From Candidatus Spechtbacteria bacterium RIFCSPHIGHO2_02_FULL_43_15b (GTDB taxonomy: Bacteria; Patescibacteriota; Minisyncoccia; Spechtbacterales; HO2-43-30): a stretch of DNA of 56,759 bases. Numbering within the stretch: position 1 is the stretch's first letter; each line of letters opens with the position of its first letter. The DNA lies in the NCBI GenBank assembly GCA_001819985.1, contig MHOE01000006.1, positions 25,934-82,692 of the forward strand, in the 5' to 3' direction. Position numbers and translations under genes: made by a program. Shown here piece after piece: positions 4,520 to 46,410 of the stretch. The notes below the pieces were generated by a model. That model did no database searches. It saw only the letters and a program-made list of their open reading frames with translations, and was not told the DNA's origin.

Positions 4520-5476
4520 ATGATAATTTTTCTCTATGGCCACGACACTTATAGGGCCGGACAAAAAGCAAAAGAGATTATAGCCGGGTACGAAGATATT
4601 CATAAAAGCGGCCTCAACCTGCGCTTTTTTGATTTCGAAGACAGCGCTTTCGGGGATTTCAAAAATGCGGCTGAATCAGTTTCTATGTTTAACGAAAAAA
4701 AACTTTTGGTTCTTAAAAACAGTTTTTGTTCAAAAGATTTTGTAAACGATTTTTTGTCATGGGGCGGGAAAGAAGGCATTGCGGTTTCAAAAGACATAAT
4801 TTGTTTATTTATGGAAGTAACAGCCGATAAGTCGAGCGACATATTCAAATGGCTTGCGGGTAACGCAAGGTGTCAGGAATTTAACGAGCTTAAAGGCACA
4901 AAATTAAAAAATTGGAGCGTGGATTTCGCGAAGCAAAAAGGAATCTTAATGGAATCTATCGTGGCGGAAAGATTGATTTTTTATACGGGCGGAGATTTAT
5001 ACGCCCTTCACAACGAAATTTCAAAAATAGCGTCTTATGTCTTAGAGAGGTCCGGATCTAAAACGGCGACAGAAGGCGACTTGAATATTTTAATAAAACC
5101 AAAGCTCGAGACCCACATATTTTCTCTCGTGGATTCGTTTGTGGAAAAAGACAAAAAGAAGGCGTTAAGGCTTTTGCACGGCCATATAGAGGCGGGGGAT
5201 AATGAGATGATGATTTTTTCAATGATTCAAACGCAATTTAGAAACATCGCCGCGATAAAAGATTTAATCGACGCGGGAGAAAAGGATTCTTACAGGATTT
5301 CAAAAATTTTAGGAATTCATCCCTATGTTGCGAAAAAAGGTATGTGGCAATCCGCGAGGATGGATAAACGGGAAATAAAAAATATCTACAAAAAATTTGT
5401 AGATACGGAGATAAAAGTAAAGACAAGTGAACTAAGTTTGAAATCGGGAATGGAGAATTTGTTGTTTGAGAGCTAG
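4520..5476 (+). CDS. holA: DNA polymerase III delta subunit
   Basis: 318 aa. It has the typical HolA N-terminus (MIIFLYGHDTYR...), an overall clamp-loader delta layout and a helical C-terminal domain. Confidence 0.7.
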   Translation: MIIFLYGHDTYRAGQKAKEIIAGYEDIHKSGLNLRFFDFEDSAFGDFKNAAESVSMFNEKKLLVLKNSFCSKDFVNDFLSWGGKEGIAVSKDIICLFMEVTADKSSDIFKWLAGNARCQEFNELKGTKLKNWSVDFAKQKGILMESIVAERLIFYTGGDLYALHNEISKIASYVLERSGSKTATEGDLNILIKPKLETHIFSLVDSFVEKDKKKALRLLHGHIEAGDNEMMIFSMIQTQFRNIAAIKDLIDAGEKDSYRISKILGIHPYVAKKGMWQSARMDKREIKNIYKKFVDTEIKVKTSELSLKSGMENLLFES

Positions 5477-5766
5477 TTTTTTGGAGTGTTTTTTGCCTCC
5501 GGAGCGGGTTTTGGATTAAGTTTTTTGGCGACTACGGATTTCCTTCTCGACGCGGTATTCTTTTTTATAACTCCGACCTTAGCGGCTTTATCCACCGCTT
5601 TATAAAATTTCGGCAGAATTTTTTTTAACTCTTCCTGATTTTTTTCTTTCGCGAAAGCAAGCGCTCTTTTCATAAGGGTTTTTATTTTGTCTTTATATTT
5701 GAGATTTCTTTTCTTTCTCGTCTTGCTTTGGCGCAGGGCCTTTTTAGCTGATTGCGTGATGGGCAT
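5473..5766 (-). CDS. rpsT: 30S ribosomal protein S20
   Basis: The MPITQSAKKALRQSKTRKKRN... N-terminus is a basic helical protein typical of bS20. Confidence 0.9.
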   Translation of the reverse strand: MPITQSAKKALRQSKTRKKRNLKYKDKIKTLMKRALAFAKEKNQEELKKILPKFYKAVDKAAKVGVIKKNTASRRKSVVAKKLNPKPAPEAKNTPKN

Positions 5767-5902
5767 ATATTTGTTTTTAGCAGAAAGTCCGATTTAAGTC
5801 AATGATTTGTGCATGTGGAAATATAGGAAACAGCATTTTACGGCTAATTACAACTAATATTGGCTTTTTAGAGCCATTTTTTGTGGTGAACTAAATTTTC
5901 CG

Positions 5903-5931
5903 TTGACATAATATCTTTTTTTTGGTATGAT
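5903..5931 (+). promoter_or_regulatory. Near-consensus sigma70-type promoter (TTGACA, 17-nt spacer, TATGAT, with TG at the extended -10 position)
   Basis: -35 TTGACA lies at 5903-5908. The spacer is 5909-5925 (17 nt). -10 TATGAT lies at 5926-5931 and is preceded by TGg. It sits about 29 nt upstream of the small ORF at 5960. Confidence 0.5.
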
Positions 5932-5959
5932 AGAGATATAAAATGTAAGGAGGGGAAAA

Positions 5960-6097
5960 ATGCGGATAGTTATTTTTTTCTCCACGCTGATTTTTTTGGT
6001 AGGCGTATGGCTGGCGACACCGGATACGGTGTACGCCCCCGCCACAGAAGATGACGCGGCGGTCACCGCCGCGGTAATGCTCGTCAACGACGAGTGA
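5960..6097 (+). CDS. 45-aa small hydrophobic/secreted peptide (hypothetical), below the ORF-track size cutoff
   Basis: ATG 5960 is preceded by SD AAGGAGG (5947-5953, 6-nt spacing). Translation: MRIVIFFSTLIFLVGVWLATPDTVYAPATEDDAAVTAAVMLVNDE. It has its own promoter upstream and a terminator hairpin directly after the TGA stop. Confidence 0.45.
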   Translation: MRIVIFFSTLIFLVGVWLATPDTVYAPATEDDAAVTAAVMLVNDE

Positions 6098-6128
6098 AAC
6101 CCCTGTTAATATACGGGGGTTTTGTTTT
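6097..6128 (+). terminator. Rho-independent terminator
   Basis: The stem ACCCCTG/CGGGGGT (with one G-U pair) encloses an 8-nt loop and is followed by TTTTGTTTT. It lies between the small ORF and the convergent truB stop. Confidence 0.5.
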
Positions 6129-6807
6129 ATTTCGCTATAAGTTCTTCTAAGTTTACGGCATCTTTCAAGACATACTTTCCGATTTTGGTGCGTATTAGCT
6201 TTTCCAAATATGCGCCACAGCCGTTTCGTTGGCGTGAGGATTTGGATGGCGCGGCAAGCTGTTTTCCAATGTCTCGTGCGAGCGCGCGAATATAAGTGCC
6301 GGAAGAACAATTTATTTTAAGCTGAAGCATGGGCCATTTATAATTTAGAACCTCAATGCCGTAAATCTTTATTTTTCTCGGCGCCAGTTTTACCTCCTTG
6401 CCGTCTCTTGCAAGTTCATACGCTTTCCTGCCGTGAATTTTAAGCGCGGAATATGCCGGAGGAACCTGATTGATTTCTCCGATAAAGTTTTTCAATATTC
6501 TCCGTATCAACACGGGTCGAACCTGTGTGGCGTTGGTAGGGACTATACTGCCAGTCAAATCCCCAGTATCACTTTCAGCCCCAAGCCGTAAGGTGGCTAT
6601 GTATTCTTTATCTAATTTTATAAATTCGACCTGCCTTTTTGTCGCTTCTCTGCCGACAAGTACTATCAAAAGCCCCTCGGCAAAAGGGTCTAGTGTTCCC
6701 GCGTGTCCCACTCGTTTTTCACCCGTGATTTTACGGACTTGGTCAACAATATCGTGCGAGGTTGGGCCGGAGGGTTTGAGAATAAGCAGGATATTATTTT
6801 TCACCAT
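6127..6807 (-). CDS. truB: tRNA pseudouridine-55 synthase
   Basis: It carries the GHAGTLDPFAEGLL catalytic Asp motif and the TruB family layout. Confidence 0.9.
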   Translation of the reverse strand: MVKNNILLILKPSGPTSHDIVDQVRKITGEKRVGHAGTLDPFAEGLLIVLVGREATKRQVEFIKLDKEYIATLRLGAESDTGDLTGSIVPTNATQVRPVLIRRILKNFIGEINQVPPAYSALKIHGRKAYELARDGKEVKLAPRKIKIYGIEVLNYKWPMLQLKINCSSGTYIRALARDIGKQLAAPSKSSRQRNGCGAYLEKLIRTKIGKYVLKDAVNLEELIAK

Positions 6808-8848
6808 AAAAATTTTTAATCTTATCTCTAAATTCAGCGGCTTTCTCGAAATCTAGATTTTTAGCCGCTTTTTTCATTTCTTTTTCAAGGTATTTTAATG
6901 AAGCGCTGTCAAGCTCTGTGAATTGACCCTTGCCTCTGGATACTAATTTGTAATTCGTCTCAGTTACGATATCCAGTTCTTCGAGCGGCTTCTCGATGGT
7001 TTTGGGCGTAATGCCGCGGTCCTTGTTGTATTTTTCTTGTATTTTTCTTCGCCTTTCAGTTTCTTTTATAGCCCGTTTCATCGATTCGGTAATATTGTCA
7101 GCGTACATTATGACTCGTCCTTCAATATGCCTCGCGGCTCGTCCCATTGTCTGAATTAGAGTGGTGTCGTTCCGCAAAAAACCCTCCTTGTCGGCATCTA
7201 ATATCGCGACTAGGGCGACTTCGGGCAAATCCAGCCCCTCTCTTAAAAGATTTATTCCAACAACAACATCATACTTTCCAGAACGCAAATCGTGAAGAAT
7301 TTTTGGGCGTTCGAGCGTATGAATTTCAGAATGAAGATAATACGCTTTGATACCCCGCTCCACAAAATATTCGGCTATGTCCTCAGCGAGGCGCTTCGTT
7401 ATAGTAGTCACAAGCACTCGCTGATTTTTAAGCACTCCTTTTTGTATCTCCTTAACTAAATCACCCATCTGATTTTTAGACGGCCGTATTTCTATTTGAG
7501 GATCAAGTAATCCCGTGGGCCTCACCAGTTGCTCGATTATGTGAGATTCCCGTCTTCCCACATGAGATTTGGAGATTTCACATTCATATTGCGCGGGGGT
7601 GGCGGAGACATAAATAGTTTGGCCGATTCTTTGCTGAAATTCATCGAAAGTGAGAGGTCTGTTGTCTAGGGCAGATGGGAGTCTGAAGCCGTAATCAACA
7701 AGCGCTTGTTTTCGAGATCTATCCCCAAAGTACATTCCTCTTATTTGAGGGATTGTCATATGAGATTCGTCTATAAAGGTTAAAAATCCTAAATCGTCGG
7801 CGGCGTATTGGGCGCGGTGGTCACGGTTTTCGGGAGACCCGAATTTTGATGAATTAGCGGCGTGGCCGAAATAATCAAGAAGCGTGTACGGCGCTTCGCC
7901 CGGATATCTTGCATCAAGATGGCGGGAGTAGTTTTCAATTCCATGACAAAAACCGGTCTGTTCTAAAAGTTCCAGGTCGAAATTCGTTCTCTGTTCGAGT
8001 CTTTGCGCTTCTAAAAGTTTTTTTTGCGAATTAAGCTGTTTGATATGCTGATGAAGTTCGTTTCTTATATTAGCTATAGCGATTTTTTGAGTATCGTCAG
8101 GCGTAGCCCAAAAGGATGCGGGGAATATAAGAACTGTGTTTACCGGATAGGATTTGGAGCCAAGCGACGGAACACTAAATCGTAAGTCCTGAATGCCAGA
8201 ACTGTTTAATTCAATACTTATAATTTTAGTTCCTGTAGTCGGGAAAATTTCTACAGTGCTTGTTCTCGACCGAAACTGGCCGGGCCTTAAATCTATCTGA
8301 TTTCTAGAATATCCGAGTAGCACCAAGTGATTCAGAAGTTCTTTTCTTGCTATGTTTTGTCCTTGAGATAACGCCAAGCTCAAGTTTTCATAGTTTGCGG
8401 GAGAGCCAATATTGTATATGCAGGATACGGAAGCTACTATTATAACATCACGCCTAGTTAGCAAATCTTGGGTCGCCGCGTGTCTCATTTGGTCTATCTT
8501 TTCGTTTATTTTAGCGTCCTTTTCTATATATGTGTCGGATTGAGGAATATACGCCTCCGGTTGATAGTAGTCATAGTAGCTTACGAAATAATGAACCGCG
8601 TTTTCCGGGAAGAATTCCTTAAACTCTTTATACAACTGCCAAGCTAGAGTTTTATTGTGCGAAATAACTAGGGCGGGGTGGTTTATCTTTTCTATAACAT
8701 TCGCCATAGTGAAGGTTTTTCCCGATCCGGTTACGCCCAAAAGCACCTGGTTTTTTGCGCCGGATAAAACGCCCTCGGACAATTTTTGTACGGCATCTGG
8801 TTGGTCGCCCGCAGGTACAAAGTTAGATTTTAGTTTGAATCTTGACAT
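6794..8848 (-). CDS. uvrB: Excinuclease ABC subunit B
   Basis: It has Walker A GVTGSGKTFT, helicase motifs, and the C-terminal UvrB motif LDFEKAAEFRDKI. Confidence 0.95.
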   Translation of the reverse strand: MSRFKLKSNFVPAGDQPDAVQKLSEGVLSGAKNQVLLGVTGSGKTFTMANVIEKINHPALVISHNKTLAWQLYKEFKEFFPENAVHYFVSYYDYYQPEAYIPQSDTYIEKDAKINEKIDQMRHAATQDLLTRRDVIIVASVSCIYNIGSPANYENLSLALSQGQNIARKELLNHLVLLGYSRNQIDLRPGQFRSRTSTVEIFPTTGTKIISIELNSSGIQDLRFSVPSLGSKSYPVNTVLIFPASFWATPDDTQKIAIANIRNELHQHIKQLNSQKKLLEAQRLEQRTNFDLELLEQTGFCHGIENYSRHLDARYPGEAPYTLLDYFGHAANSSKFGSPENRDHRAQYAADDLGFLTFIDESHMTIPQIRGMYFGDRSRKQALVDYGFRLPSALDNRPLTFDEFQQRIGQTIYVSATPAQYECEISKSHVGRRESHIIEQLVRPTGLLDPQIEIRPSKNQMGDLVKEIQKGVLKNQRVLVTTITKRLAEDIAEYFVERGIKAYYLHSEIHTLERPKILHDLRSGKYDVVVGINLLREGLDLPEVALVAILDADKEGFLRNDTTLIQTMGRAARHIEGRVIMYADNITESMKRAIKETERRRKIQEKYNKDRGITPKTIEKPLEELDIVTETNYKLVSRGKGQFTELDSASLKYLEKEMKKAAKNLDFEKAAEFRDKIKNFYGEK

Positions 8849-8925
8849 AACGGTTAGTTTGTTATTTTAGCAGATTACTTTGGAGCTTGCAATAAAATAA
8901 ATTCAACCAATAAAAATAATCTAAG

Positions 8926-8953
8926 ACAAAAAATACCCGAGAAAATCTCGGGT
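8926..8953 (-). terminator. Rho-independent terminator of the glycosidase operon
   Basis: The hairpin ACCCGAG-aaaat-CTCGGGT (8935-8953) is followed on the minus strand by a U-tract (forward aaaaaat, 8927-8933). Confidence 0.55.
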
Positions 8954-8987
8954 ATAATTCGATAGTATTTGCTTAAAATTATCAGTT

Positions 8988-10448
8988 TCAATAAAGAGCT
9001 ATTTGAAGCGGCGTTCCGTTCGCGGAAAAGGCGACAGGTTTCTTGTCGATGTAAACACGAAAAGAACCAGGCTCGACCAATACCAATATATCTCGCGAAT
9101 TCACGATAAGGTTTTCCAAAACAGTATGGGCGTTAAACGGAAATGGATTCATTATAGCCATATTTGGAGCATAGGGCCTGATACCCACGACATATTTAAT
9201 AATGAGGTCGTTTATCCATGAATGCAGATAATTATCAATTCCGTTAAATCCGTTTTCGGTTGTGCTGGCCGAATACCGTTTTAGCGGATGGTAATGCTCA
9301 AAACTGTTCGGCCTTAAAGGATCTCCCTCAAAGCTCATTGTTGCGAGCCATTTCTCAAAGAAACTGACAAATTCGCGGCGAAGGCGGTTGTCGTCAAATC
9401 TGATTGCTAAGTTAGCGATCGCTTCGGCTATATGCGAGTTTGTCATAGGCCACATCCTGCCGTTCCATGGGCACATTTCTTTTTTGCCCTTCCATATTCC
9501 ATCCGCGCTGAACTGTGGATCGTCCATGCTTAATGTGGGGAAGGGAACGGGCGTAAAAAATTCTTCGGAATTGAATAGGTGCTTCTTAAATCCTGCCAAG
9601 TGTTTTTTTGAAACAATATTGGTGAAGTAAGGATAAAAGCAAGTTAACGCTTTAACATCCGTTCTTCGCATTTGATTGGCGTCAAAGTCAAAAAACATTT
9701 CCTGAACTGGATCCCACATATATTTCAAGACGGCGTGTTTAACCTTTTGAGCTCTTCGGCTCCAGGCCTCGGCTGAAGCCGTCCCTCCTAAAAGTTGAGC
9801 CATTTTACGCAAGGATTCGTAAAGCTGATAAATATATACTGTGGCATCCACGCCTTTCAAGCAAAATACATTACCCCAACCGACAGAATCGGCCTTATCG
9901 CTTACGGTGGAGTACCTTGGAGAAAACTCCTGCCCGGTCTCGAAGTGATTGACGATGTCATACATATAGAACCGCTCACGGTCGCGTTGTCTCTCAAAGT
10001 ATTCCGCGTAGCGCGAAAGGCCATTATAACAGTATAAAAGGAAATCGCGGTCTGGATGCAACCAGTAAACTTCGAGCACGGATGTTCCCCAGTCGGCATG
10101 ATAAAATGTTTCAGGATTTGCGCCTTTTTCAGGATTAATGTGTCCCGGCAGGGAGCCATCCGCGGCTTGGTTTTCAATAAAGTTAACTATCGATCCTTGA
10201 GCGAGAAGGGGGTTTTCTAGCCACCTTAATTCTCGCATATGCGCCTGGGCGCTGTAAGAGATATGTTGCTGAAAAAAACTAGTCCCCTCGTAAACTCCGG
10301 GCGCGGGAAGATATTTAGCTTCTTGTTTTCTTTTACTAAAATCAAAACTCAAATCCTCCAGATTCTTCCAGCGATAGTTATAGAAGTTTTGAAAGTAGGG
10401 GTTTTGGCAGTCAAGCTTTGGTGGGTCTCCAAAAGGAAAAAAAGTCAT
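8988..10448 (-). CDS. (alpha/alpha)6-barrel glycoside hydrolase, GH63/GH37 (MGH1/trehalase)-like
   Basis: 486 aa. The segments ETGQEFSPRY and WNGRMWPMTNSHIAEAI resemble the acid/base regions of GH63/GH37-type glucosidases. The family assignment is from memory only. Confidence 0.5.
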   Translation of the reverse strand: MTFFPFGDPPKLDCQNPYFQNFYNYRWKNLEDLSFDFSKRKQEAKYLPAPGVYEGTSFFQQHISYSAQAHMRELRWLENPLLAQGSIVNFIENQAADGSLPGHINPEKGANPETFYHADWGTSVLEVYWLHPDRDFLLYCYNGLSRYAEYFERQRDRERFYMYDIVNHFETGQEFSPRYSTVSDKADSVGWGNVFCLKGVDATVYIYQLYESLRKMAQLLGGTASAEAWSRRAQKVKHAVLKYMWDPVQEMFFDFDANQMRRTDVKALTCFYPYFTNIVSKKHLAGFKKHLFNSEEFFTPVPFPTLSMDDPQFSADGIWKGKKEMCPWNGRMWPMTNSHIAEAIANLAIRFDDNRLRREFVSFFEKWLATMSFEGDPLRPNSFEHYHPLKRYSASTTENGFNGIDNYLHSWINDLIIKYVVGIRPYAPNMAIMNPFPFNAHTVLENLIVNSRDILVLVEPGSFRVYIDKKPVAFSANGTPLQIALY

Positions 10449-21650: not shown

Positions 21651-23918
21651 TTACTTGGATTTTACCGGCCAGCTCTCCACTATTAAGAGTTTTTTATCCT
21701 TAATAGGCAAGGTACTGTAAATTTCTTCGGTTATAAACGGCGTAAACGGATGCAAGAGTTTTAATGTTTGAGTCAGAATGTAAAGAAGAATCGTCTTTGT
21801 AATCTCTGCCTGTTTTTTCGTTTCGGCTCGGGCAATTTGTTTTTTGCTTTCTTCTAAATACACATCCGCGAAATCATGCCAAACAAAATCATAAAGCGCG
21901 TGGGCGGCGTGTCCGAATTGGTATTGTTCCAAGTACTTATCCGCGAGTTTAGACATTTTATTGAATTGGGATAGGATTTTTTTGTCGCTTTGGGATTTTG
22001 GTTTTGGAATTCGATTAGTCATCGGGGATTCGTCTTTGGTCGTTTGGAGCAATACAAAGCGGCTTATGTTCCATAGTTTGTTGCAAAATTTTTTCCCCGC
22101 CATTATGTGTTCTTCAGCAAAACGGATATCCTGCCCGCCCATTGCCTGATACGCTATGCCAAAACGAGTTGCGTCGGCTCCGTATTTATCTATCAATTGC
22201 AGTGGGTCTATGCCGGTACCTAAAGATTTACTCATCCGTCTGCCGTCTTTTGTTAGAACTGTCGCGTGTATTATAACATTGTCGAACGGTTTTTGGCCTG
22301 TAAATTCATAGGAAGAAAAAATCATCCTCGCAACCCATAAGTTTATTATACCGCGGTCAGTAGACAGAACCTGAGTCGGGTAAAATGTTTTCAAATCTTT
22401 GGATTTTTTATCAGGCCAACCTAATGTGGCGAACGGCCAAAGCGCGCTCGAGAACCAAGTGTCAAGAACATCTTCGCTTTGTTTGAGATTTGTTCCTTTG
22501 CACGACGGGCAATTTCTGGGCTTTTCGCCGGAAACGATAATTTGGCCGCATCCGACTTTTATGTCTTCATCAAGATCCATTCTTTCCTGAAAACCGTCTG
22601 ATTTACCGCAGAACCATACCGGAAGCCGGTGGCCCCACCAAATCTGCCTCGATACGCACCAGTCCCTCACATTTTTAAGCCAGTCAATATAAATTTCATC
22701 CCACCTTTTTGGCACAAATTTTACTTCGCGTTTTTTAACGGCGCGCATCGCTGTTTTTGCGAGTTGGTCCATTTTTAAGAACCATTGCAAATTCGCAAGC
22801 GGTTCAATTATCGAGTCGCACCTGTAGCAGTGAGGGACTTGATGCGCGAAATCTTCAGTTTTTTCAAGAAGGTTTTGTTTTGCTAGTTCTTCAAGCACTT
22901 TTTCTCTGCACTCGTTTATTTTCAGTCCCTCGCATACTGCTCCCGCTCCTTTTGTCATTCTTCCCCGCTCGTTAATTATTTTGTATTGTGGCAAATTGTG
23001 TCTTTGCGCTATTTCCCAGTCATTAAAATCGTGAAGGGGCGTAACTTTCACCGCTCCGGTTCCAAAGCTTGGATCAACGGCATAGTCGGCAATTATAGGT
23101 ATGTTTCGATTTTGAATCGGCAGCACAACATTTTTTCCGATTAAGTCCTTGTATCTTTCGTCTTTTGGATTAACAGCAACCGCCGCGTCCCCAAGCATGG
23201 TTTCGGGTCTTGTAGTCGCGACAATAATGTAGCGAACTTCGGAAATTTTTGAATTTTGAATTTCAGTTTTTTTCGGCAAGTGTTGATTCTCAAGTTTGTA
23301 ACGAATATGCCACAACTTTCCATTTTCTCCCTTGTATTCGAGCTCCAAATCAGATAAAGATGTTCCGCAACGGATACACCAGTTCACAACCCTCAAGGCC
23401 CTGTAAAGCCAGCCCTTGTTGTAATATTTTACAAACGCTTCAGAAACGGAGTTTGCATATCCGTCGTCCATAGTGAAACGAGCGCGCGACCAGTCACACG
23501 ACGCGCCTATTTGTTTGAGCTGATGGAGTATTATATTTCCATACTGCTCTTTCCATTTCCATACTTCTTCGATGAATTTATCCCGTCCCAGATCAAATCT
23601 GGATAGGTTCTCTTTTTTCAGTTTTTGCTCAACTTTATTTTGCGTGGCAATCCCCGCGTGGTCTGTGCCTGGGATCCAAAGCGTTTTATAACCCTGCATT
23701 CTTTTTCTGCGGATTATGGCATCTTGGATTACCGCATTCAGCGCGTGTCCCATATGAAGTTCTCCCGTGACATTCGGAGGTGGAATGGTTATGGTAAATG
23801 TTTTCTTGTGCGTCTTAGGGAGTTTATCGGGATTAAAAAAACCGCTCTTTTCCCAGAGTTCGTAAATTTTCGATTCTGTTGTTTTGGGGTCGTAGGCCGA
23901 GGGCAGTTCTTTTTGCAT
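21651..23918 (-). CDS. valS: Valyl-tRNA synthetase (short form without C-terminal coiled coil)
   Basis: It has the HIGH region PPPNVTGELHMGHAL, the editing-domain motif ATTRPETMLGD and KMSKSLGT. Confidence 0.95.
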   Translation of the reverse strand: MQKELPSAYDPKTTESKIYELWEKSGFFNPDKLPKTHKKTFTITIPPPNVTGELHMGHALNAVIQDAIIRRKRMQGYKTLWIPGTDHAGIATQNKVEQKLKKENLSRFDLGRDKFIEEVWKWKEQYGNIILHQLKQIGASCDWSRARFTMDDGYANSVSEAFVKYYNKGWLYRALRVVNWCIRCGTSLSDLELEYKGENGKLWHIRYKLENQHLPKKTEIQNSKISEVRYIIVATTRPETMLGDAAVAVNPKDERYKDLIGKNVVLPIQNRNIPIIADYAVDPSFGTGAVKVTPLHDFNDWEIAQRHNLPQYKIINERGRMTKGAGAVCEGLKINECREKVLEELAKQNLLEKTEDFAHQVPHCYRCDSIIEPLANLQWFLKMDQLAKTAMRAVKKREVKFVPKRWDEIYIDWLKNVRDWCVSRQIWWGHRLPVWFCGKSDGFQERMDLDEDIKVGCGQIIVSGEKPRNCPSCKGTNLKQSEDVLDTWFSSALWPFATLGWPDKKSKDLKTFYPTQVLSTDRGIINLWVARMIFSSYEFTGQKPFDNVIIHATVLTKDGRRMSKSLGTGIDPLQLIDKYGADATRFGIAYQAMGGQDIRFAEEHIMAGKKFCNKLWNISRFVLLQTTKDESPMTNRIPKPKSQSDKKILSQFNKMSKLADKYLEQYQFGHAAHALYDFVWHDFADVYLEESKKQIARAETKKQAEITKTILLYILTQTLKLLHPFTPFITEEIYSTLPIKDKKLLIVESWPVKSK

Positions 23919-25403: not shown

Positions 25404-25475
25404 GGCCCCGTCGTCTAACGGTTAGGACGCTACCCTTTCACGGTGGAAAAAGGGGTTCGATTCCCCTCGGGGCTA
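25404..25475 (+). tRNA. tRNA-Glu (anticodon UUC)
   Basis: I folded the 72-nt cloverleaf by hand. Acceptor GGCCCCG/CGGGGCT (G1-U71 wobble); D arm GTCT/GGAC; anticodon stem CTACC/GGTGG with loop CTTTCAC; T arm AGGGG-TTCGATT-CCCCT; discriminator A. CCA is not encoded. Confidence 0.9.
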
Positions 25476-25660
25476 CACGAATTTTTGTTCTCGCGAGAAT
25501 TTGAGAATTGAGTACTTAGTATTGGTAATTAAGATAAGAAAAACTATACAAGCGTTCCTCGAATAGAAAACGGATTGGTAGCTCGTTTTTCCTTGCGTTA
25601 TCTCAATAAGTGTGTTATGGCTTAAGAAAGAGAATGGCGGAGTTGTAAAGGAGTGAATTT

Positions 25661-33012: not shown

Positions 33013-36000
33013 ATGGATTTAATTAAGCAAGAAAAGAGAATATTAAAGTTTTGGAAAGAGTCCGAAGTTTTCGAAAGAAGCGTAAAAAACCGGATAAAAT
33101 CTCAGGAATTTGTTTTTTACGAGGGACCTCCGACAGCAAACGCGCGACCCGGCATACACCATGTTTTATCGCGGTCATTCAAGGATGTTTTGTTAAGGTA
33201 TAAAACTATGCGCGGATATAGGGTGGAAAGAAGGGCTGGTTGGGATACTCACGGTCTGCCGGTTGAAATAGAAGTGGAGAAATCGTTAGGTCTTAAAAAT
33301 AAAAAAGATGTGGAAAAATACGGAGTTTCAAAGTTTAACGAAAAGTGCAGAGAGTCCGTGTGGAAGTACAAGGCGGAGTGGGAATATCTTACGGAGCGCA
33401 TAGGTTTTTGGCTGGATATGAAAAATCCGTACATAACTTACGACCCTATGTATATGGAAAGTTTATGGTGGATTATCAAGAGAGCATACGATAAAGGATT
33501 GCTTTATGAGGGTCATCGCGTAGCTCCATATTGTCCAAGATGCGGGACTTCGGTTTCTTCACACGAAGTTGCTCAAGGTTATGAAGATGTGGTTGATAAA
33601 TCGGTTTTTGTAAAATTCGAAATTCGTTTGTTTGATCAATGGTTAGGAAAAAATACTGGAAATTCCGAATCTGGGGTAAATTCAAAATCAAAAATCAAAA
33701 ATTCAAAAACATATCTGCTTGCATGGACAACAACACCGTGGACATTAGCGGGTAATGTGGCTTTGGCGGTAGGGCCTGATATTGTTTATGTTTTAGCGGA
33801 GGGTGACGGTAATGAGCGGTATATTTTAGCTAAAGACAGGGTAGAGGAAGTTTTCAAAAAAAACAATCCTAAAATCATACGCGAGATGAAGGGGAAAGAT
33901 CTTGATGGAATAGAATATGAGCCAGTTTTTGATTCCCTCAAAAATCAAAAAGGTAAAAAGTATTATGTTTGTCTCGCGGATTTTGTGACGACTAAAGAAG
34001 GTACGGGTATTGTTCATACGGCGGTGATGTACGGCGAAGATGATTATAATATTGGGGAAAAACTTGGGCTTCCAAAGGTTCATACCGTAGATAAAGAAGG
34101 AAAGTTCAACAACCTTGTTCCGCAATGGGCTGGAATATTCGTGAAAGACGCAGAAAAAGATATTATAGCGGATCTTAAGAAAAGAAACTTTATTTTCGGA
34201 GACATTTTGCCGTATAAGCACTCTTATCCTTTTTGTTGGAGGTGTAAAACCCCTCTATTGTATTACGCGATGGATTCGTGGTTTTTAATGATGAGTTCGC
34301 TTAGGGATATACTGATAAAAAGTAACGACAAAGTAAACTGGATACCGCCGCACATAAAAAACGGCAGATTTGGCGAATGGCTCGTTGAGTTAAAGGATTG
34401 GAATTTTTCAAGAAACAGATACTGGGGCACTCCTTTGCCCGTGTGGAAATGCGAAAAATGTTCAAACATCGAAGTTATCGGTTCTCGTGATGATTTGTAT
34501 GCTCAAAATTTTAGCACGAACGCGTTTTTTATAATGAGGCACGGCGAGTCGGAAAAAAACAATCGTCCGAATCCCGTATTGTCAACTAAATGGCCGGAGA
34601 CAATAAAATATCATTTGACCGAAAAAGGAAAAGAGGATGTTGTTAAATCCGTGAGATTGATAAGAAATAAAGGTGGAGTGGATTTAATATTCGCGTCAGA
34701 TTTCACAAGAACAAAAGAAACCGCGGAGATTTTGGCAAAAGAACTTGGAGCAAAACTTTATTTTGATAAGAGGATCAGAGAAATTGATCTTGGGACATAC
34801 GATGGTCGTACGGAGCAGGATTTCAAGATAAATTTTCCGGACTTTGCGAAAAGGTTTGAAAAGTGCGCTCCAGAGGGAGAAAATTACACAAAATTGCGCA
34901 AGCGGATGTTTTCCTTTATGCATTTTGTAAACAAAAAATACAAAAATAAAAGAATTTTAATTGTAAGTCATGGGGACCCGCTGGTTATTCTCCAATCAGC
35001 GCTAAGAGGTTTAACGATTAAAGAAACGGCTGAGGAAAAAAGCAAGAATTATATAGAAGTCGGAGAGGTGAGGGATGCTATTTTCAAGCACTTTCCTTAC
35101 GGGAAAAGAGGCGAGCTGGATTTGCATAGGCCCTATGTGGATGAAGTGAGATTCCAGTGTTCAAAGTGCAAAGACGAGTTATGCGATTATATGAAGAGAG
35201 TAGAGGATCTTGTGGATGTTTGGTTTGATTCCGGGAGTATGCCATTTGCGCAGGGTTACTGGCCATTTTGCCACGGGAAAACAAAACGCGAGTCGGTTCC
35301 TGAAAAATTTCCAGCGGATTACATTTGCGAAGGCATAGACCAGACGCGCGGATGGTTTTACACTTTATTTGGGGTTTCCGCTCTGCTTGGTTTCGGAGCG
35401 CCTTATAAGAATGTTATTTCCCTAGCCCATGTGCTTGATAAAAATGGAAAGAAAATGTCAAAGTCGAAGGGTAATACAGTGGATCCGCAGGTAATTATTG
35501 ATAAATACGGCGCAGATTCTCTTAGGTGGTATTTTTACACCGTGAATCAGCCGGGAGATTATAAGCGGTTTGACGAAAGAGATATTCAAAAATCTTACAG
35601 GAAATTTATATCAACTCTTTACAATACTTACATTTTTTACGCGACATATAAAATTAAGGTTCCGAGTTCTTACAAGACAAGATCGACGGAATATCTGGAT
35701 GAGTGGATTTTGTCTAAATTGAACAAGCTTATAGACGAAGCGTCAAAAAAACTCGATAGCTACGATGTAACAGGCGCGGCGAGGAGCATGGAATCATTTG
35801 TTATAGACGATTTGTCGAACTGGTATGTGCGCCGTTCGAGAAAGAGATTCCAGAACCCAAATTCAGAGAAAGAAAAGAAAGATGCGGCTTACACTTTGCG
35901 TCATGTGCTTTTCGAGGTGAGCAAGTTATGCGCGCCTTTCGTGCCATTTTTAAGCGAGCATATATACTTGGGGCTACAATCTGATGCGAATAGGCAAAGC

Positions 36001-36624
36001 TCAAAATCCGTACACTTGGAGGATTATCCGGAAGCGGATAAAAAAAGCATTGATCCGGTCGTGGAAGAAGCGATGAAAAGCGCAAGAAAAATCGTGGAGA
36101 TGGCGCATGAATTGAGATCTAGAAACGGTATGAAAGTTCGCCAGACGCTTTCAGTGGTAGAAACAAACGCTGTAATACCGGAAAAATTAAGAGAAGTCGT
36201 AGCGGAGGAGATAAATGTTAAACGAGTAGTTTATAAAAGCAGTCCGCAAAAAGGGGGAAATTGGGCAGAAACATCAGAGGGCAATATTACGGTGTCTTTG
36301 AACATCGAGCTTACTCCGGAGCTTAAGAAAGAAGGTTTTATGAACGAGTTTACGCGAAGAATTCAAGAGCTTAGGAAGTCGGCAGGGCTAAAATCTCATC
36401 AGAAAATAAGTTTATATTATTCGGGAAGCGTGGATTTGAAAGATATAGTAAGTAAGCGGTATGATGATGTAAGGAGTCAAAATAACACAGCTTTTATTTT
36501 TGAATCAGGAGGCAAAAAAGAAGCGTTTAATGCGGAAGGAGAATTTGAATGGGAAGGGAAAAAAATATGGATAGGCATTAAGGTAAATAAAAAAGCAAGA
36601 TCTAAAGTTAAAGGCAAGAAATAG
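33013..36624 (+). CDS. ileS: Isoleucyl-tRNA synthetase (type 2) carrying an inserted histidine-phosphatase domain
   Basis: It has PPTANARPGIHHV, WTTTPWTL, KMSKSKGN and a strong Thermus-type IleRS pattern throughout. The ~200-aa insert at 34501-35112 carries RHGES...SHGD motifs. Confidence 0.95.
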   Translation: MDLIKQEKRILKFWKESEVFERSVKNRIKSQEFVFYEGPPTANARPGIHHVLSRSFKDVLLRYKTMRGYRVERRAGWDTHGLPVEIEVEKSLGLKNKKDVEKYGVSKFNEKCRESVWKYKAEWEYLTERIGFWLDMKNPYITYDPMYMESLWWIIKRAYDKGLLYEGHRVAPYCPRCGTSVSSHEVAQGYEDVVDKSVFVKFEIRLFDQWLGKNTGNSESGVNSKSKIKNSKTYLLAWTTTPWTLAGNVALAVGPDIVYVLAEGDGNERYILAKDRVEEVFKKNNPKIIREMKGKDLDGIEYEPVFDSLKNQKGKKYYVCLADFVTTKEGTGIVHTAVMYGEDDYNIGEKLGLPKVHTVDKEGKFNNLVPQWAGIFVKDAEKDIIADLKKRNFIFGDILPYKHSYPFCWRCKTPLLYYAMDSWFLMMSSLRDILIKSNDKVNWIPPHIKNGRFGEWLVELKDWNFSRNRYWGTPLPVWKCEKCSNIEVIGSRDDLYAQNFSTNAFFIMRHGESEKNNRPNPVLSTKWPETIKYHLTEKGKEDVVKSVRLIRNKGGVDLIFASDFTRTKETAEILAKELGAKLYFDKRIREIDLGTYDGRTEQDFKINFPDFAKRFEKCAPEGENYTKLRKRMFSFMHFVNKKYKNKRILIVSHGDPLVILQSALRGLTIKETAEEKSKNYIEVGEVRDAIFKHFPYGKRGELDLHRPYVDEVRFQCSKCKDELCDYMKRVEDLVDVWFDSGSMPFAQGYWPFCHGKTKRESVPEKFPADYICEGIDQTRGWFYTLFGVSALLGFGAPYKNVISLAHVLDKNGKKMSKSKGNTVDPQVIIDKYGADSLRWYFYTVNQPGDYKRFDERDIQKSYRKFISTLYNTYIFYATYKIKVPSSYKTRSTEYLDEWILSKLNKLIDEASKKLDSYDVTGAARSMESFVIDDLSNWYVRRSRKRFQNPNSEKEKKDAAYTLRHVLFEVSKLCAPFVPFLSEHIYLGLQSDANRQSSKSVHLEDYPEADKKSIDPVVEEAMKSARKIVEMAHELRSRNGMKVRQTLSVVETNAVIPEKLREVVAEEINVKRVVYKSSPQKGGNWAETSEGNITVSLNIELTPELKKEGFMNEFTRRIQELRKSAGLKSHQKISLYYSGSVDLKDIVSKRYDDVRSQNNTAFIFESGGKKEAFNAEGEFEWEGKKIWIGIKVNKKARSKVKGKK

Positions 36625-44892: not shown

Positions 44893-46410
44893 ATGAGTAA
44901 TAAATTCTACATAACAACCGCAATAGATTATGTGAACGGGAATCCGCACATAGGCCACGCGTTTGAAAAAATTTTTGCGGATGTGCTCGCAAGATATCAT
45001 AGAGATACGGGAGATAATGTTTTTTTTCTGACGGGAACGGATGAGCACGGAGTTAAAAATGTAAAATCGGCGGAGGCGGCAGGTATTCCAGTTCGAGAGT
45101 TTACGAAAAAAAATAGTGACAAGTTCAAAGAGCTTGCCAAGACGCTTAACATCTCAAACGATTTCTTCATACGCACGACAGACAAAGAAATCCACTGGCC
45201 GGCGGTGGAAAAAATGTGGAGGGTTCTCGATAAAGCAGGGGACATTTACAAGAAAAAATATCAGGGACTCTACTGCGTCGGCCATGAAGCGTTTGTAACA
45301 AGGAAAGATTTGACCGATGGGAAATGCGCGCTCCATAAAAAAGCGCCGGATATGGTGGAAGAGGAAAATTATTTTTTTCGGCTGTCCAAGTACACCCCAA
45401 AAATAAAAGAAGCCGTGACAAGCAAAAAGTTAAGAATAGTCCCGGATTCATCGTTAAATGAGCTTATGAATCTTTTGGAAGATGGCTTGGAAGATGTAAG
45501 CTTTTCAAGGCCAAGCAAGGACTTGAAGTGGGGAGTGCCTGTCCCGGGAGACCCATCGCAGACAATTTATGTATGGTGTGACGCCCTGGTGAACTATATA
45601 TCGGCAATCGGCTACGGTTCGGAAGATTCCGGATCAAAAACCTCAAATTTCAATAAATTTTGGCCGGCAGATCTGCAGGTTATAGGAAAGGATATACTAA
45701 GATTCCATGCCGCGATATGGCCCGGTATGCTTATGTCGGCAGGACTTGCTCTGCCAAAAGTATTGTTCGCGCACGGATTTATAAGTGTTGGCGGTGAAAA
45801 GATATCAAAATCCGTAGGCAATGTCATTGACCCGTTTGAGCTAATTGAAAAGTACGCGCGTCTAGGCCCCTCCGAATTAATAGCCGATGCAATGCGCTAT
45901 TATCTTCTTCGCGAAATTCCTTCAACGCGCGACGGCGATTTTACCATTGAGAGATTTGAAGAGAGATATAACGCGGATCTCGCAAGCGGGCTTGGAAATT
46001 TCGTATCGCGAGTTGTGACTGTCGGCGCGAAGTGCATATCTGGTGAGTTTGACGGCGCGGAGTCGGAAGATGTTAAACGGCAAATCAAAAAAGTTTGGGC
46101 TGAGTATAGAGAATTTGTTGAAAGTTTTAGATTCGATGAAGCGCTCCAAGCCGTATGGGGTCTTATAAGCTACGGAGATAAATTCGTGGACAGCGAGAAG
46201 ATCTGGGAGCTCGCGAAAAGCGATCCCAAAAGATTTCAGAGCGATATTTTTGAATTGTGCGTTATTTTGGCGAATGTCGCGAAAATGCTTGGGCCATTTC
46301 TTCCGAGGACTTCCGAAAAGATATTTGACCAGCTGGGAGCAAAGCCGAGCGGCGATAATTGGAAATTTCAATTAAAAAAAGGCGAAGCGATGTTTCCGCG
46401 AATAAAATAA
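44893..46410 (+). CDS. metG: Methionyl-tRNA synthetase (minimal form)
   Basis: HIGH is NGNPHIGHAFE and KMSKS is KISKSVGN. The anticodon-binding helical domain is present. There is no C-terminal EMAP/Trbp111 extension. Confidence 0.95.
   Translation: MSNKFYITTAIDYVNGNPHIGHAFEKIFADVLARYHRDTGDNVFFLTGTDEHGVKNVKSAEAAGIPVREFTKKNSDKFKELAKTLNISNDFFIRTTDKEIHWPAVEKMWRVLDKAGDIYKKKYQGLYCVGHEAFVTRKDLTDGKCALHKKAPDMVEEENYFFRLSKYTPKIKEAVTSKKLRIVPDSSLNELMNLLEDGLEDVSFSRPSKDLKWGVPVPGDPSQTIYVWCDALVNYISAIGYGSEDSGSKTSNFNKFWPADLQVIGKDILRFHAAIWPGMLMSAGLALPKVLFAHGFISVGGEKISKSVGNVIDPFELIEKYARLGPSELIADAMRYYLLREIPSTRDGDFTIERFEERYNADLASGLGNFVSRVVTVGAKCISGEFDGAESEDVKRQIKKVWAEYREFVESFRFDEALQAVWGLISYGDKFVDSEKIWELAKSDPKRFQSDIFELCVILANVAKMLGPFLPRTSEKIFDQLGAKPSGDNWKFQLKKGEAMFPRIK

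Follow-up and report, generated by a model that had tools for sequence, protein, structure and literature searches.

We identified a second, complete enzyme domain inside an isoleucyl-tRNA synthetase (IleRS) of Candidatus Spechtbacteria bacterium RIFCSPHIGHO2_02_FULL_43_15b. The domain is almost certainly a branch-1 histidine phosphatase of the small PhoE/PspA/CobC-like kind, approximately 185 aa in length, which is nested in an otherwise intact type-2 IleRS. The gene, ileS, lies in a stretch of 56,759 nt of contig MHOE01000006.1, referred to here as the window, which means the whole stretch of DNA that was analysed. Aminoacyl-tRNA synthetases are among the best-studied enzymes, and their accessory domains, such as the editing domains and the eukaryotic appendages, have been a recurrent source of new biology. 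In the present case, the accessory domain is an entire enzyme whose active site is conserved, and it lies within the catalytic domain of an essential synthetase over a large radiation of bacteria that are ultra-small and host-dependent.

The nested phosphatase and its host synthetase

The synthetase and the phosphatase are encoded by one uninterrupted open reading frame (ORF), with no internal stop and no frameshift across the phosphatase region, as an earlier note on this DNA had read it. To describe conservation, we rely on an exhaustive, profile-free search with aa 460-740 of the protein against 1.84 billion representatives of protein clusters (50% identity), in which 175 representatives matched at E<=1e-30. 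Among the best 150 representatives, 121 aligned in one stretch across both IleRS flanks and the insert (the fusion clusters), and another 26 are fragments spanning one junction. The features of the insert are as follows.

33013..36624, forward strand: ileS, a single ORF of 1203 aa encoding a type-2 IleRS with a nested histidine phosphatase
34501..35112, forward strand: the inserted segment (aa 497-700), made up of an N-linker, a complete His_Phos_1 domain and a C-linker, as seen with Pfam, AlphaFold and Foldseek
34528..35028, forward strand: Pfam His_Phos_1 (PF00300) envelope, aa 506-672
34537..34545, forward strand: RHG motif, formed by R509, H510 (the presumed phospho-accepting nucleophile) and G511, conserved in 100%, 99% and 90%, respectively, of the 121 fusion clusters
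34708..34710, forward strand: R566, the second phosphate-binding arginine, conserved in 99% of fusions and 100% of stand-alone homologues
34780..34782, forward strand: E590, the presumed proton donor, in a REIDLG motif that is aligned with LREIHLG of PhoE; E in 90% of fusions
34969..34971, forward strand: H653, the second catalytic histidine (SHGDP), conserved in 100% of the 121 fusion clusters

Recognition of the domain by Pfam is unambiguous: for PF00300, on which the earlier note had made its reading depend, the whole protein scored 99.4 bits (E 2.7e-28) and the excised insert 104.5 bits (E 7.3e-30), against a cut-off of 21.7 bits. All of the motifs quoted in the earlier note, the RHG motif and the second histidine among them, were found at the positions it gave, and its expectation that these residues would be conserved in orthologous inserts was borne out: the catalytic residues are 90-100% conserved in the fusion clusters, despite the rest of the domain being only approximately 33-54% identical to the window insert. 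Further conserved columns correspond to N516 (87%), E623 (100%) and R631 (98%). The catalytic set also shows almost no variation in 30 stand-alone homologues, apart from the proton-donor position, where most have D. R566, E590 and H653 are aligned with their equivalents in PhoE, the closest solved relative by sequence (E 6e-12). Judged from these residues and from the structure models described below, the domain is probably a catalytically active phosphomonoesterase.

Structure prediction, which the earlier note had proposed as a test of independent folding, agreed with its expectation. AlphaFold2 modelled the insert alone with a predicted local distance difference test score (pLDDT) of 92.6 and a predicted template modelling score (pTM) of 0.89, and Foldseek matched this model (probability 1.00; TM-scores of approximately 0.70-0.74 to the top neighbours, with query-normalised scores, TMq, of approximately 0.71-0.74 to the best) to PspA (4IJ5/4IJ6), the riboflavin-pathway HFP (9MMH), GpgP (4PZ9), PhoE (1H2E), Rv3214 and CobC. 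A model of aa 1-1060 of the window IleRS reached pLDDT 89.5 and pTM 0.86, with pLDDT >90 across both junctions and aa 218-227 as the only disordered stretch, and superposed on the IleRS structures of Thermus thermophilus (1ILE) and Candida albicans (6LDK) with target-normalised TM-scores (TMt) of 0.86-0.88, the value for 1ILE being 0.86. Together, the models give an independently folding domain inside an intact IleRS. The small branch-1 phosphatases PhoE of Geobacillus stearothermophilus (1EBB/1H2E), PspA/iPSP1 (4IJ5), CobC, Rv2419c GpgP and HFP (9MMH) share the fold of the insert, its RHG...R...E...H catalytic set and a similar length (approximately 190-210 aa). They are 17-25% identical to it and are free-standing, whereas the insert is nested in a synthetase.

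The earlier note had called the domain a histidine phosphatase of the phosphoglycerate mutase (PGAM) type; the first part of this description holds and the second does not. A true dPGM/phosphoglycerate mutase was rejected, as TIGR01258 scored 34.7 bits against a cut-off of 81.7, dPGM_arch 73.6 against 225, and the mutase models PRK14115-14120 scored 17-30 bits against cut-offs of 305-421. In dPGM, mutase activity, as opposed to phosphatase activity, depends on a free C-terminal tail that closes over the active site. The chain of the insert has no free C-terminal tail and, after its last strand (aa 686-689), runs straight back into IleRS via FPYGKRGELDLHRPY. With the mutase models far below their cut-offs and the C terminus leading directly into the synthetase, the domain is therefore read as a phosphomonoesterase and not as a PGAM-type mutase. 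The insert reached no NCBIfam equivalog cut-off, so substrate specificity is not transferable from its known relatives. Its best NCBIfam match (76.5 bits, far off the cut-off of 326) is the Rv2228c-type RNase H/acid phosphatase (NF005567), in which a CobC-like histidine phosphatase is likewise joined to an enzyme that acts on nucleic acids; that fusion is end-to-end, not nested, and involves a different partner enzyme.

Alignment to 8C8W (Priestia megaterium IleRS2) placed residues 5-485 of the window protein on chain residues 12-464 and residues 692-1072 on 476-847. Approximately 11 residues in 8C8W thus stand at the place of approximately 204 in the window IleRS, and insert-less close relatives have 14 residues at this site, in agreement with the statement in the earlier note that only about 10-15 residues separate the flanking blocks in Thermus-type IleRS, where about 200 intervene here. 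Three features define the site.

34450..34461, forward strand: first CxxC of the CP3 zinc knuckle (C480, C483), just 5' of the insert, invariant in 85 sequences
35092..35103, forward strand: C-terminal junction motif FPYG (consensus F/L-P-x-N), with P695 in 79% and N697 in 60% of the 121 fusion clusters
35158..35169, forward strand: second CxxC of the CP3 zinc knuckle (C716, C719), just 3' of the insert, from the sequence and alignment A2

Because it is flanked by the CxxC pairs C480/C483 and C716/C719, the insert is placed by sequence between the two halves of the zinc knuckle, in the CP3 connective-peptide subdomain and not in the Rossmann beta-sheet core. CP3 binds zinc in the T. thermophilus enzyme and has a different structure in each IleRS studied (PMC7191050). 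The description 'embedded in the catalytic core' therefore applies to the primary sequence but not to the structure, in which the insertion site is a peripheral, variable knuckle. The junction columns are almost gap-free over the 121 fusion clusters, and the linker lengths are therefore fixed. Recent horizontal gain of the insert was rejected on base composition, with a GC content of 38.4% against 39-41% in the flanks and the same GC content at third codon positions (GC3); the window insert is, moreover, most similar to the inserts of the nearest insert-bearing IleRS relatives.

The synthetase body is that of a type-2 IleRS. The ORF protein scored 875 bits with the NCBIfam IleRS equivalog TIGR00392 (cut-off 621.4); Pfam tRNA-synt_1, Anticodon_1 and DUF5915 were matched either side of the insert, the last of these representing the type-2 C-terminal region. 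The best matches by sequence in the Protein Data Bank were IleRS2 and T. thermophilus IleRS, and the match to 8C8W extended over the full length (E 2e-252). The window IleRS shares this full-length match, the DUF5915 C terminus and the G/AXHH-class signature with solved type-2 enzymes (1ILE; P. megaterium IleRS2 8C8U-8C9D), and differs from them in that approximately 11 CP3-loop residues are replaced by a 204-residue enzyme domain. Its catalytic and editing motifs are intact, as judged from alignment A2, which comprises 85 IleRS sequences and is also the basis of the aa 1-1060 structure model.

33151..33162, forward strand: class I signature motif in the non-canonical form GIHH (aa 47-50), from the sequence
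33724..33744, forward strand: CP1 editing motif WTTTPWT (aa 238-244), intact, in columns from at least 90% conserved to invariant in A2
35452..35466, forward strand: KMSKS loop (aa 814-818), intact, with K814, M815, S816 and K817 invariant in A2

A GxHH signature is found in 102 of 106 close homologues of the window IleRS. The G/AXHH motif is a functional non-canonical form that has been tied to mupirocin hyper-resistance, up to 1000-fold higher, in IleRS2 (PMC10485003). The phosphatase insert occurs in GxHH-type and HxGH-type IleRS alike.

Distribution, extra copies and losses

Across much of the Patescibacteria/Parcubacteria, the fusion is inherited and is the usual form that IleRS takes; it is neither rare nor unique to the window. 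PF00300 was found in 114 of the 120 best full-length homologues, and the named hosts include Candidatus Spechtbacteria/Spechtbacterales, Wildermuthbacteria, Nealsonbacteria, Parcubacteria and Patescibacteria. A genome scan covering one genome per GTDB species recovered at least 516 loci that encode a relative of the insert, and 67-68 of the best 80 are in-frame fusions inside ileS. Fusion genomes are also labelled Vogel-, Yanofsky-, Uhr-, Lipton-, Kaiser-, Azam-, Doudna- and Nomurabacteria and Paceibacterota; the automatic labels Saccharibacteria, Gammaproteobacteria and Pacearchaeota on some of them are probably wrong. One protein, P0180 from Candidatus Spechtbacteria bacterium RIFCSPHIGHO2_01_FULL, was shown as 100% identical to the window IleRS (99.5% over the insert columns).

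This recurrence disposes of an assembly chimera or mis-joined contig, for which only the general prior attached to any metagenome-assembled genome speaks: the same in-frame junctions recur in 67 independent species-representative assemblies and in 121 protein clusters, and the insert has the base composition of its flanks. With the ORF uninterrupted, we rejected chimeric assembly and frameshift alike, the former having a negligible probability.

The earlier note was aware of no described IleRS with this insertion. We found none in the literature either, but the fusion itself is widespread and public in databases. A full-text literature search, with subscription journals mostly outside it, retrieved no description of a histidine-phosphatase insert in IleRS or another synthetase, and the insert goes unmentioned in two recent comprehensive papers on IleRS evolution and structure, one of them PMC10485003. 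Public databases contain the sequences together with a precomputed Pfam architecture; it is a published description of the architecture that was not found. New here are the stand-alone phosphatases upstream of ileS, the ArgRS fusion, the multi-copy and second-site IleRS proteins, and the clean loss in the nearest relatives of the window.

As well as being nested in ileS, the phosphatase family is linked physically or translationally to class I synthetase genes in several other ways. The closest free-standing homologues of the insert are Patescibacteria proteins of approximately 190 aa that are approximately 40% identical to it. Four of the five that were examined are encoded directly upstream of an insert-less type-2 ileS, at a spacing of -7 nt (an overlap) to +74 nt (n=4 measurable pairs), and the fifth lies elsewhere in its genome. 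Where the upstream DNA suffices, the usual block is smpB-infC-rpmI-rpmT-argS-[phosphatase]-ileS-recO, although locus L007 differs upstream. The 12 non-fusion loci among the best 80 genome loci are all on the upstream side of ileS, 11 of them adjacent to it and one separated by a gap of approximately 0.9 kb, and no locus among these 80 is unlinked to ileS.

A second synthetase is also involved. Protein P0176 is an arginyl-tRNA synthetase (ArgRS) with the same phosphatase family at its C terminus, found at positions 5001-7070 of two independent 70-kb contigs (L096 and L097); the block there reads smpB, argS::phosphatase-recO-DUF7619, and ileS is absent from its usual place. Five IleRS proteins (P0121, P0127, P0149, P0154 and P0174) contain two or three His_Phos_1 domains. 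In P0149, the CP3-site copy is an RHA variant, and a divergent second copy (aa 871-1061), which retains the catalytic motifs, is located between the catalytic and anticodon-binding domains. P0146 combines a CP3 phosphatase insert (aa 642-819) with a MutT-like NUDIX domain (aa 226-343) near the start of CP1. This NUDIX domain is generic, with no specific subfamily matched, and P0146 looks like a singleton, as no further example of an IleRS with a NUDIX domain was found.

Two loci carry altered copies of the fusion gene. At L041 (CAYUUM010000002.1), a tandem IleRS paralogue at 6598-9597 directly follows a normal fusion ileS; it has lost the CP1 editing domain and KMSKS, its HIGH motif is now NINH and the RHG of its insert has become RPG, so that by its sequence it looks like a doubly dead pseudo-enzyme copy. 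At L001 (4419-6705), an insert-bearing ileS, adjoined by PemK toxin and Pif1 helicase genes, is split into three gene calls by frameshifts, and represents either a pseudogene or long-read assembly errors.

The insert is absent from the six nearest IleRS relatives of the window, the bodies of which are 64-67% identical to that of the window enzyme. The synteny argG-small ORF-ileS-greA-recO is common to the window and these relatives (shown for the three examined), and no phosphatase gene was found beside ileS in the three loci examined. In a neighbour-joining (NJ) tree, the insert-less relatives are nested in the insert-bearing Spechtbacterales, with bootstrap 100/100 at two levels, and most of them keep a junction remnant, (I/V/L)P(R/K)N, followed by an acidic residue and DLHRPYVD. 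From these sequences, we read the insert-less relatives as cases of clean secondary loss. In an insert-less Spechtbacterales relative at L015 (8513-10269), HicA/HicB and Phd-like toxin-antitoxin genes are inserted between greA and recO, which are adjacent in the window.

The history of the stand-alone genes is less simple. An NJ tree of the phosphatase domains, without bootstrap, groups the stand-alones closely together, as a single cluster within inserts of much greater diversity. The ileS genes beside them are scattered over both major clades of the IleRS tree. The idea that an upstream gene was copied once into ileS was consequently not sustained, and no co-divergence of stand-alone phosphatases with the adjoining IleRS clade was seen. 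Comparison of L003 (615-3374) with L069 (from approximately 5050) is instructive: their stand-alone phosphatases are 85% identical and the downstream ileS genes only 53%, one being of the HYGH type (L003) and the other of the GIHH type (L069), with the first approximately 38 IleRS residues nearly identical before the two diverge. This pattern of sequence similarity implies that the ileS body was replaced by recombination and that ileS alleles are exchanged among these bacteria. Given such exchange, the IleRS tree cannot be used to count fusion or fission events.

Candidate functions of the nested phosphatase

Our data are consistent with a model in which the phosphatase domain would work with the synthetase and not merely share a polypeptide with it. 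Two short linkers, the lengths of which are conserved, would fix the domain in place on CP3. There it would dephosphorylate a nucleotide-type substrate that is handled at the synthetase, the favoured candidate being a tRNA acceptor end with a 2'/3'-phosphate or else a related adenine nucleotide, and would represent a second nested hydrolase beside the CP1 editing domain. We consider this explanation as a whole, an active, CP3-fixed phosphomonoesterase that cooperates with the synthetase on a nucleotide-type substrate, to be evenly poised between right and wrong. The balance tips slightly towards a functional coupling of the phosphatase family to class I synthetases, because distinct fusion forms recur, the free gene is translationally coupled and the junctions are rigid. 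The coupling to ileS and the ArgRS fusion amount to a 'Rosetta-stone' signal that class I aminoacylation and a phosphomonoesterase are functionally linked. If they are, translation would involve a new phosphorylated substrate, for which a tRNA end, a by-product nucleotide and the synthetase protein are candidates; if they are not, the family still illustrates cleanly how, in nature, a domain can be inserted, duplicated, split off and precisely lost in an essential gene.

That the substrate is a nucleotide or a tRNA end is a tentative and rather doubtful proposal, made by analogy with CP1, which is likewise a hydrolase and shares the connective polypeptide with the insert. In class Ia synthetases, the CP1 editing domain is nested in the connective polypeptide of the Rossmann fold, and its presence there shows that this scaffold can accommodate one enzyme inside another and put it to use. 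All IleRS, ValRS and LeuRS possess CP1, the substrate of which is mis-acylated tRNA, whereas the CP3 insert is lineage-restricted and has an unrelated fold and chemistry, with a predicted phospho-histidine intermediate. In its most specific and distinctly unlikely form, the proposal is that the CP3 phosphatase would be a site of tRNA acceptor-end repair or proofreading, at which the tRNA would be freed, before charging, of a 2'/3'-phosphate that blocks it or of the phosphate that remains from a pyrophosphate block. Possible sources of such blocks are RelA/SpoT-like toxins, by which the tRNA CCA end is pyrophosphorylated, and damage by ribonucleases. Were this so, tRNA-end repair would be built into an aminoacyl-tRNA synthetase, and the domain would be the first histidine phosphatase known to act on RNA.

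Several observations weigh against cooperation on a nucleotide-type substrate. The substrates of the nearest structural neighbours are small metabolites (phosphoserine, glucosyl-3-phosphoglycerate and a riboflavin intermediate), and we know of no histidine phosphatase that acts on tRNA ends. As the closest relatives have neither the insert nor a neighbouring phosphatase gene, the domain is dispensable for IleRS function. The adjacency of the stand-alones to ileS may, because they form one tight cluster, reflect a few inherited events rather than many independent ones.

The main rival reading is a hitch-hiker: an active housekeeping phosphatase of small metabolites, required by the cell in some unrelated pathway, would have been captured in a permissive surface loop of an essential and constitutively expressed enzyme with no mechanistic link to aminoacylation, and would be retained since only a precise deletion keeps IleRS alive. 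The nearest neighbours of the insert in both sequence and structure are metabolite phosphatases, CP3 varies more than any other IleRS subdomain and accepts different folds, the insert can be cleanly lost, and the ArgRS fusion is explicable by simple loss of a stop codon between neighbouring genes; GC and GC3 equal to those of the flanks indicate an old resident and not an adaptive recent gain. A passive passenger of this kind accounts poorly for a synthetase linkage that recurs as a CP3 insert, a divergent second-site copy, tandem copies and an ArgRS fusion, for the position of all of the best 80 genome loci in or beside ileS, and for linkers of conserved length with confidently modelled junctions. 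We regard the hitch-hiker, and the retention mechanism that goes with it, as rather unlikely.

A phosphoprotein phosphatase or switch, by which IleRS or another translation protein would be dephosphorylated, for example in reversal of an inhibitory phosphorylation of the HipA-family type, is improbable. The histidine phosphatase superfamily does include the protein phosphatases SixA, PGAM5 and Sts-1, and HipA and HipT phosphorylate GluRS and TrpRS. The domain is small (approximately 185 aa) and has a weak, partial match to the SixA model, but at 28.6 bits this is far below the cut-off of 74.5; neither the window nor the related loci that were examined revealed a kinase partner, and IleRS and ArgRS are not known targets of HipA-type kinases.

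Two further alternatives are both very improbable. A catalytically dead structural module, with a role in tRNA binding, oligomerization or scaffolding, has a precedent in the degenerate RPG insert of the L041 tandem paralogue, by which pseudo-enzyme versions can be said to arise, but it is at odds with the retention of the catalytic residues in the window and the fusion clusters amid an otherwise divergent domain. A resistance domain that detoxifies a phosphorylated IleRS inhibitor or analogue would suit the G/AXHH motif of the host IleRS, with its link to mupirocin hyper-resistance, and the swapping of ileS alleles by recombination, which suggests antibiotic-type selection on ileS. It would also have a parallel in NF040702 (ileS_w_GNAT; isoleucine--tRNA ligase, N-acetyltransferase domain-containing), a curated IleRS class that, like the window IleRS, has an added enzyme domain; the added domain there is GNAT, not His_Phos, and the window protein scored 298 bits against a cut-off of 1999. 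Against detoxification, the insert is present equally in HxGH-type and GxHH-type IleRS, and to our knowledge no natural IleRS inhibitor has a hydrolysable phosphomonoester.

Other observations in the window

Searching the 56,759 nt of the window with tblastn revealed no second ileS and no second His_Phos domain. Two class I synthetase-like ORFs, of 755 aa (21651-23918, reverse strand) and 505 aa (44893-46410, forward strand), gave weak tblastn matches to parts of IleRS (25-31% identity) and no His_Phos match. Within the window IleRS, a Ser/Lys/Asn-rich low-complexity stretch, GKNTGNSESGVNSKSKIKNSK (33625-33708; aa 205-232), lies directly ahead of WTTTPWT and includes the sole poorly modelled stretch of the AlphaFold model, aa 218-227. 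This site, which bears the NUDIX domain in P0146, may be a second permissive insertion point. The window contains one tRNA gene, tRNA-Glu(UUC), at 25404-25476.

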